From: a phage
Sequence record: PZ386977.1
Strand: one strand, 5' to 3'
Length of the DNA stretch: 64,000 bases
Both the position numbers and the translations under genes were made by a program. Below are positions 51,140-51,595 of this stretch, in pieces (within the stretch, counting starts at the first letter, position 1; the number at the start of each line of letters is the position of its first letter). The notes beneath the pieces were generated by a model that saw nothing but the letters and a program-made list of their open reading frames with translations, was not told the origin of the DNA and did not search any database.

Positions 51140-51595
51140 TTATTTTAGATCTTCGGCCCAATCTAGTTTTAAGGGTTCTTTGTATTCACGGTCGAGAATA
51201 ACCGGAATAGCTACATCACCACTGAATGATAGTTGGCCAACGTTATATGATAACGTTATATGTGGAGTGTAGTCGTCGAAGTCATGAGTAGCACCTAAAG
51301 CTCGTGCATACTGATGACGACATCTAAGATATTCAGAATCAAGAACTAAAACCAGTACAGCGCCGTCGTCAGTTTTCCATACCTCAAAGTGTCCTGATTC
51401 TGCAACAGAATAACTACCACTAGATGTAGTATATGGTATGTTTACACGTGAATAACAAATTGTTGAATGAAGCTTTTCACGTGGTACTGGATTAGGAATT
51501 CTTAATTTACGCTGGAGGTCTTCCAGCGCATCAAGTGTTAATTCTGAAAACTTAGCTGCGACGTAGAGGCCTTGTGAAAAGTCCTCAAATTTCAT
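51140..51595 (-). CDS. 57B: gp57B, 2H-phosphoesterase-fold protein (Acb1-like anti-CBASS nuclease)
   Basis: 151 aa; two H-x-T motifs (HSTI, HITL); syntenic with T4 57B. Confidence 0.75.

Follow-up and report, generated by a model that had tools for sequence, protein, structure and literature searches.

The locus raises the question of what is encoded by the short open reading frame at 51140..51595, which the sequence-only reading had taken for a homologue of T4 gene 57B retaining the function of Acb1, and whether that gene is still a working one. Within the window, i.e. the whole stretch of 64,000 nt that was analysed, the frame lies on the minus strand and is intact, running from an ATG start to a TAA stop (included in these coordinates) and encoding a protein of 151 aa. 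The coordinates, the protein length and the two H-x-T motifs given in that reading were all correct, while the strand was absent from it. As argued below, we estimate a probability of roughly 0.93 that this is a working acb1 (57B), belonging to an RB69-like member of the T-even phages (genus Mosigvirus), with a product that would cut the cyclic-nucleotide signals of CBASS.

We found that acb1, the three genes upstream of it, the internal head protein gene and the tRNA cluster are located on the minus strand. Upstream lie gp3 (52618-53208), gene 1, which encodes a dNMP kinase (51830-52564; Pfam DNMK, E=1.4e-96), and gene 57A, which encodes a tail-fibre chaperone (51595-51825; Pfam GP57, E=5.9e-23), with gene 1 preceding 57A as in T4 and 57A immediately preceding acb1. 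Downstream are the gene for an Ip7-type internal head protein (50751-51062), three small ORFs of the tRNA.4/.3/.2 type and, about 1.4 kb from acb1, ten clustered genes for tRNAs (48898-49729), which carry Arg, Asn, Tyr, Met, Thr, Ser, Pro, Gly, Leu and Gln. This order, gp3, gp1, 57A, 57B, internal head protein and tRNA cluster, bears out the 57B position that had been proposed; it is the order of T4 (3, 1, 57A, 57B, ipI, trna.4-.2, tRNAs) and again that of RB69. In addition, a homologue directly follows gene 1 and 57A in more remote members of the Straboviridae, namely phages of Acinetobacter, Aeromonas, Cronobacter, Vibrio and Klebsiella. The T-even genomic position helps to establish orthology, though membership in the family does not require it. 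Close relatives vary in their tRNA content, the cluster site holding 10 tRNA genes here, 8 in T4 and 2 annotated in RB69.

The TAA stop codon of 57A and the ATG of acb1 share one base (TAATG; junction sequence GAATAATGAAA), suggesting that the two genes may be co-transcribed and translationally coupled, as expected for such an arrangement. Based on a motif search, we located one T4 late-promoter motif, TATAAATA, at 52180-52187 on the minus strand. It falls within gene 1, some 355 nt before 57A begins, and late transcription of 57A and acb1 could proceed from it. The same type of search, in gene 1 and in 57A, revealed no MotA box ahead of acb1.

A Pfam scan matched the protein to PF23474 (Anti-CBASS protein Acb1) with residues 8-149 aligned to the full profile (1-144/144), and because the score was 197.3 bits against a cut-off of 27 bits (E=1.3e-58), the match is far beyond chance. 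Acb1 was the sole Pfam family matched at E<=0.01. A phmmer search of all PDB chains returned the Acb1 of Erwinia phage FBB1 (7T26/7T27, E=1.1e-58, query residues 9-148), and alignments gave identities of 85% to T4 Acb1 (NP_049750.1) and 63% to FBB1 Acb1, so that the earlier identification of the protein as an Acb1 homologue is supported by profile, structure database and pairwise alignment. A tblastn search detected homologues in the records of 1470 phages, and in 138 of these records the identity was at least 99%. An NCBIfam scan matched no family to the Acb1 protein or to the neighbouring internal protein. A single-sequence AlphaFold2 model of the 151-aa protein had a mean pLDDT of 39.4 and a pTM of 0.29, too low for the model to be used; the 2H phosphoesterase fold that we predict for the protein rests on its 63% identity to the solved FBB1 structure.

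That T4 57B encodes Acb1, as the sequence-only reading had stated, was confirmed by the work of Hobbs et al. (2022, Nature 605:522; PMC9117128), in which 57B was found by activity-guided fractionation as the 3'3'-cGAMP-degrading enzyme of infected lysate and was named Acb1. In the same study (PMC9117128), nine further Acb1 homologues, all active, cleaved 3'3'-cGAMP and cAAA, and crystals of FBB1 Acb1 revealed the fold of a 2H phosphoesterase, its pocket being U-shaped. The bases are stacked there on Y12, W74, F107 and W147, the N6 of adenine is read by E141, and residues 145-152 form a lid closing over the ligand. The tetrad H44/T46/H113/T115 was described as performing metal-independent acid-base catalysis via a cyclic phosphate intermediate to give GpAp; an H44A/H113A mutant was inactive, and T4 delta-acb1 was restricted by CBASS (PMC9117128). 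More recently, a transposon study reported T4 57B to be dispensable on K-12, whereas insertions in it were depleted when the host expressed CBASS (bioRxiv 10.1101/2025.11.20.689424). A literature search for papers dealing with both Acb1 and RB69 yielded no relevant report testing an RB69-type Acb1.

The residues on which this activity depends could be mapped one by one. A regex scan of the protein detected only two H-x-[ST] motifs, HST at residues 43-45 and HIT at residues 112-114. The first, H43-S44-T45 (51461..51469, minus strand; codons CAT TCA ACA), aligns with H44/T46 of T4, and the second, H112-I113-T114 (51254..51262, minus strand; codons CAT ATA ACG), aligns with H113/T115. When the alignment of the catalytic histidines was checked, H43/T45 and H112/T114 fell exactly on H44/T46 and H113/T115 of both T4 and FBB1 Acb1, in agreement with the earlier assignment. 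Specifically, the nine residues named as catalytic or ligand-contacting in PMC9117128 (Y12, H44, T46, W74, F107, H113, T115, E141 and W147) correspond in a global alignment to Y11, H43, T45, W73, F106, H112, T114, E140 and W146, each identical to its T4 counterpart (9/9). In an alignment of nine family members, extending down to 29% identity, 17 columns were invariant, including those of Y11, H43, T45, H112, T114 and E140. The C-terminal lid segment, residues 144-151 (145-152 in T4 and FBB1; 51143..51166, minus strand), is also conserved, with seven of its eight residues the same as in T4, the sole change being D149->E148 and W147 of T4 being kept as W146. The protein carries 22 substitutions relative to T4 Acb1, which are mostly conservative, include a cluster in the 53-80 region, and none of which (0/22) falls on a mapped residue.

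By analogy with T4 and FBB1 Acb1, the product would be a small 2H phosphoesterase that needs no metal. Its ligand would be a CBASS signal, a cyclic di- or trinucleotide with one adenosine or more (3'3'-cGAMP, cUA, cAAA etc.), and would be bound in a U-shaped pocket, with its bases stacked on Y11, W73, F106 and W146 and the adenine N6 read by E140, and the lid (residues 144-151) at the C-terminus would shut over the ligand. Acid-base catalysis by H43/T45 and H112/T114 would allow the adenosine 2'-OH to attack the 3'-5' phosphodiester on the 3' side of adenosine, opening the ring via a 2',3'-cyclic phosphate intermediate to give a linear 3'-phosphate product, e.g. GpAp. With the second messenger removed, the CBASS effectors would stay inactive and the cell would not commit suicide before the phage had replicated. 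What is said here of its activity, of the substrates it accepts and of its effect against CBASS is inferred from close orthology (63-85% identity) to characterised proteins.

The positions at which the protein does differ from T4 Acb1 bear on the first alternative, in which an enzyme of the Acb1 family would have had its substrate range shifted by the 22 substitutions, for example to accept cGG, 2',3'-linked dinucleotides or cA4, or narrowed in order to avoid guards of the Panoptes type. Such a shift might be favoured by the divergence itself, 15% of the residues being different, with a cluster in one region, and by the selective pressure that type II Panoptes exerts on acb1, which includes escape mutations and is accompanied by a natural nonsense allele in Bas43 (PMC13577387), but we consider it very unlikely given that all mapped ligand-contact and catalytic residues are unchanged, that the substitutions are mostly conservative and that each of the nine other homologues assayed cleaved 3'3'-cGAMP as well as cAAA (PMC9117128). 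A related proposal for the RB69-type enzymes in general is that their substrate range is measurably unlike that of T4 Acb1, or that they possess a second activity on RNA ends bearing a 2',3'-cyclic phosphate; this appears very unlikely, and it would have been brought about by the 22 substitutions, which lie outside the mapped contact residues. Were it true, the defences based on cyclic nucleotides (CBASS subtypes, type III CRISPR, Panoptes) that Mosigvirus phages evade or trigger would be a different set from those affected by T4.

The database labels point in a different direction. The PHROG assignment of this protein (PHROG 755) reads 'RNA ligase', as does the RefSeq entry for T4 57B, and many records label members of the Acb1 family either 'RNA ligase' or 'hypothetical protein'. 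Taken literally, the former label would mean a LigT-like 2'-5' RNA ligase or 2',3'-cyclic phosphodiesterase acting on RNA ends, e.g. in tRNA or mRNA repair, with any action on immune signals being incidental. The two HxT motifs are those of the 2H superfamily, which includes LigT, and might be read in favour of this possibility, but the H-x-T/S pair is common to the whole superfamily and does not discriminate Acb1 from LigT. The cluster of 10 tRNA genes about 1.4 kb away would suit a role in tRNA repair, and the Acb1 family profile, when searched against the PDB, gave a marginal match to an AKAP7-type 2H domain (E=0.31); this domain was the only other 2H match, and LigT was not among the hits of that search. 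Against these points, Acb1 was matched by Pfam at E<=0.01 to the exclusion of LigT and every other 2H family, the T4 orthologue was identified through the cGAMP-degrading activity of infected lysate, and the pocket that encloses a cyclic dinucleotide under the lid is conserved here residue for residue. The label itself appears to have arisen by automatic transfer of a LigT-type 2H name, and we found no experiment behind it. We consider repair of RNA ends as the role of this gene extremely unlikely, and the 'RNA ligase' identity was rejected for lack of a LigT-type profile match and of an experimental basis for the label.

The reading as a functional acb1 gene is also consistent with the pattern of nucleotide substitution. 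The gene shares 75% nucleotide identity with its T4 counterpart as against 85% amino-acid identity, and the Nei-Gojobori method gave dN=0.126, dS=1.84 and dN/dS=0.069, a ratio that is approximate since dS is near saturation. Because dN/dS is about 0.07, the comparison indicates that acb1 diverged from the T4 gene under strong purifying selection. A relict gene, in decay or not expressed and now functionless, which might be imagined from the natural loss-of-function alleles of acb1 in related phages (Bas43; PMC13577387) and from the non-essential nature of T4 57B on hosts without CBASS (bioRxiv 10.1101/2025.11.20.689424), is hardly credible for a full-length frame that has no frameshift or premature stop, has a start overlapping the 57A stop as for a co-translated gene, and specifies a protein kept identical in other isolates and at 99% identity or more in the 138 records; a pseudogene was rejected on the basis of the intact ORF and the low dN/dS.

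Downstream of acb1, a spacer of 77 nt separates the gene from that of the internal protein. RNAfold placed a 12-bp stem-loop in this spacer (51091..51117, minus strand) and gave -18.3 kcal/mol for the whole 77 nt, with no T-run after the stem-loop, and a scan of 50400-53400 for terminators revealed no terminator-like site directly after acb1. A sigma-70-like match (TTTACA-17-TACTAT, 51125..51097) overlaps the stem-loop; in the scan of 50400-53400 for sigma-70 promoters, however, the number of promoter-like sites was not above chance (15 vs 11.0 ± 3.3 expected). The stem-loop could be an element for RNA stability or processing, or may do no more than belong to the promoter region of ip.

The protein encoded beyond this spacer matches phrog_2667 (E=7e-39) and is 100% identical to RB69ORF156c and 67% identical to T2 ip7, whereas it has about 12 N-terminal residues (MKTYQEF...) and no more in common with T4 IpI. 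No homologue of IpI or of a 'nuclease inhibitor' was found anywhere in the 64,000-nt window. RB69 possesses both an Ip7-type and an IpI-type gene, this phage has the Ip7-type gene only, and O157 typing phage 6, with an identical Acb1, has an IpI-type gene at this place. The slot adjoining acb1 is a variable anti-restriction (ip) slot.

A second gene that bears on cyclic-nucleotide immunity is located about 15 kb from acb1. A tblastn search with T4 Vs.4 revealed a homologue of Acb2, a cyclic-nucleotide sponge, encoded on the minus strand (36302-36568; 64% identity, E=2.9e-31), and its product matched the Acb2/Tad1 hairpin domain of Pfam (PF24729, E=9.6e-18). The ORF list gives a longer, TTG-started ORF at 36302-36736, while the start codon of T4 corresponds to the ATG at 36568. 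In addition, a protein 84% identical to T4 Tk.4 is encoded at 34214-34681 on the minus strand, and Pfam detected a Macro domain in it (E=1.7e-06). Judged from these homologies, the phage, like T4, would carry two anti-CBASS genes, the Acb1 nuclease and the Acb2 sponge. The pair bears on the prediction of host range against CBASS-bearing strains and also, because Acb1 and Acb2 have been reported to be able themselves to trigger Panoptes guard systems, against strains bearing Panoptes. The acb1 gene is otherwise an ordinary and already described one, the family, structure, mechanism and role having been published in 2022 and the identical protein being present in public phage genomes. The practical value of the finding lies in annotation, in that records saying 'hypothetical' or 'RNA ligase' should read Acb1.

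Comparison with known phages placed the gene most closely among the RB69-like viruses. The protein at the 57B position of E. coli O157 typing phage 6 (AKE45893.1, Mosigvirus) is identical, the genes differing at 5 nucleotides, and gp57B of RB69 (AAP76056.1, Mosigvirus), found in the same gene order, is one residue apart (F70 vs L70); the annotation in these two records goes no further than 'conserved hypothetical protein' or 'hypothetical protein'. Since the protein is identical to one of these and one residue from the other, the phage is therefore RB69-like and belongs to Mosigvirus, and megablast likewise grouped the DNA with RB69-like phages of this genus, phage ST0 sharing 97.2% identity over 99% of a 24-kb stretch. 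Of the acb1 PCR primers published for Bas35 (PMC13577387), one matches within gene 1 with 2 mismatches and the other is without a match, and there is no useful link to the BASEL phages from these primers.

Several homologues extend beyond the plain Acb1 architecture. The 57B-like protein of Klebsiella phage KP15 (L006:1459-2082) has a C-terminal extension of about 55 aa past the Acb1 domain, and the homologue of Vibrio phage phiKT1024 (L007:1429-1950) has an N-terminal extension and is located away from 57A and gene 1, near a primase-helicase gene. In the portal protein of cyanophage Pam3 (PDB 8HDS chain A, 621 aa), the C-terminal ~125 residues (492-616) match the Acb1 profile (E=1.5e-12), and the two catalytic motifs are represented there by HVT and HIS. 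It would be unusual for a portal protein to be fused to a 2H domain of the Acb1 kind.

Among the characterised proteins, T4 Acb1 (57B) is alike over its full length. Its gene likewise comes straight after gene 1 and 57A, and it has in common with this protein the HxT/HxT tetrad, the Glu that reads adenine, the four aromatic residues for stacking and the lid at the C-terminus, whereas the present protein is one residue shorter at the N-terminus and is encoded upstream of an Ip7-type internal protein in place of IpI. FBB1 Acb1 (7T26, apo; 7T27, with 3'3'-cGAMP) aligns over 140 residues with its catalytic and most of its ligand-binding residues in register, but has F at 74/73 and Y at 107/106, where T4 and this protein have W and F, and a one-residue insertion near position 79. 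The divergent structures 9Q2G/9Q2Y (165 aa), which bear the name 'Anti-CBASS protein Acb1', are also members of the family: the profile finds them at E=4.6e-12 and aligns their two H-x-T motifs, although by sequence they are distant from this protein (phmmer E=0.007). With the 2H superfamily at large (LigT/2'-5' RNA ligase and AKAP7-type proteins), for which the search gave no significant sequence match, Acb1 shares the two H-x-T/S motifs and the metal-independent 2',3'-cyclic phosphate chemistry (PMC9117128); it differs from the other 2H proteins in forming a Pfam family of its own and in having a lid-covered pocket for cyclic oligonucleotides.
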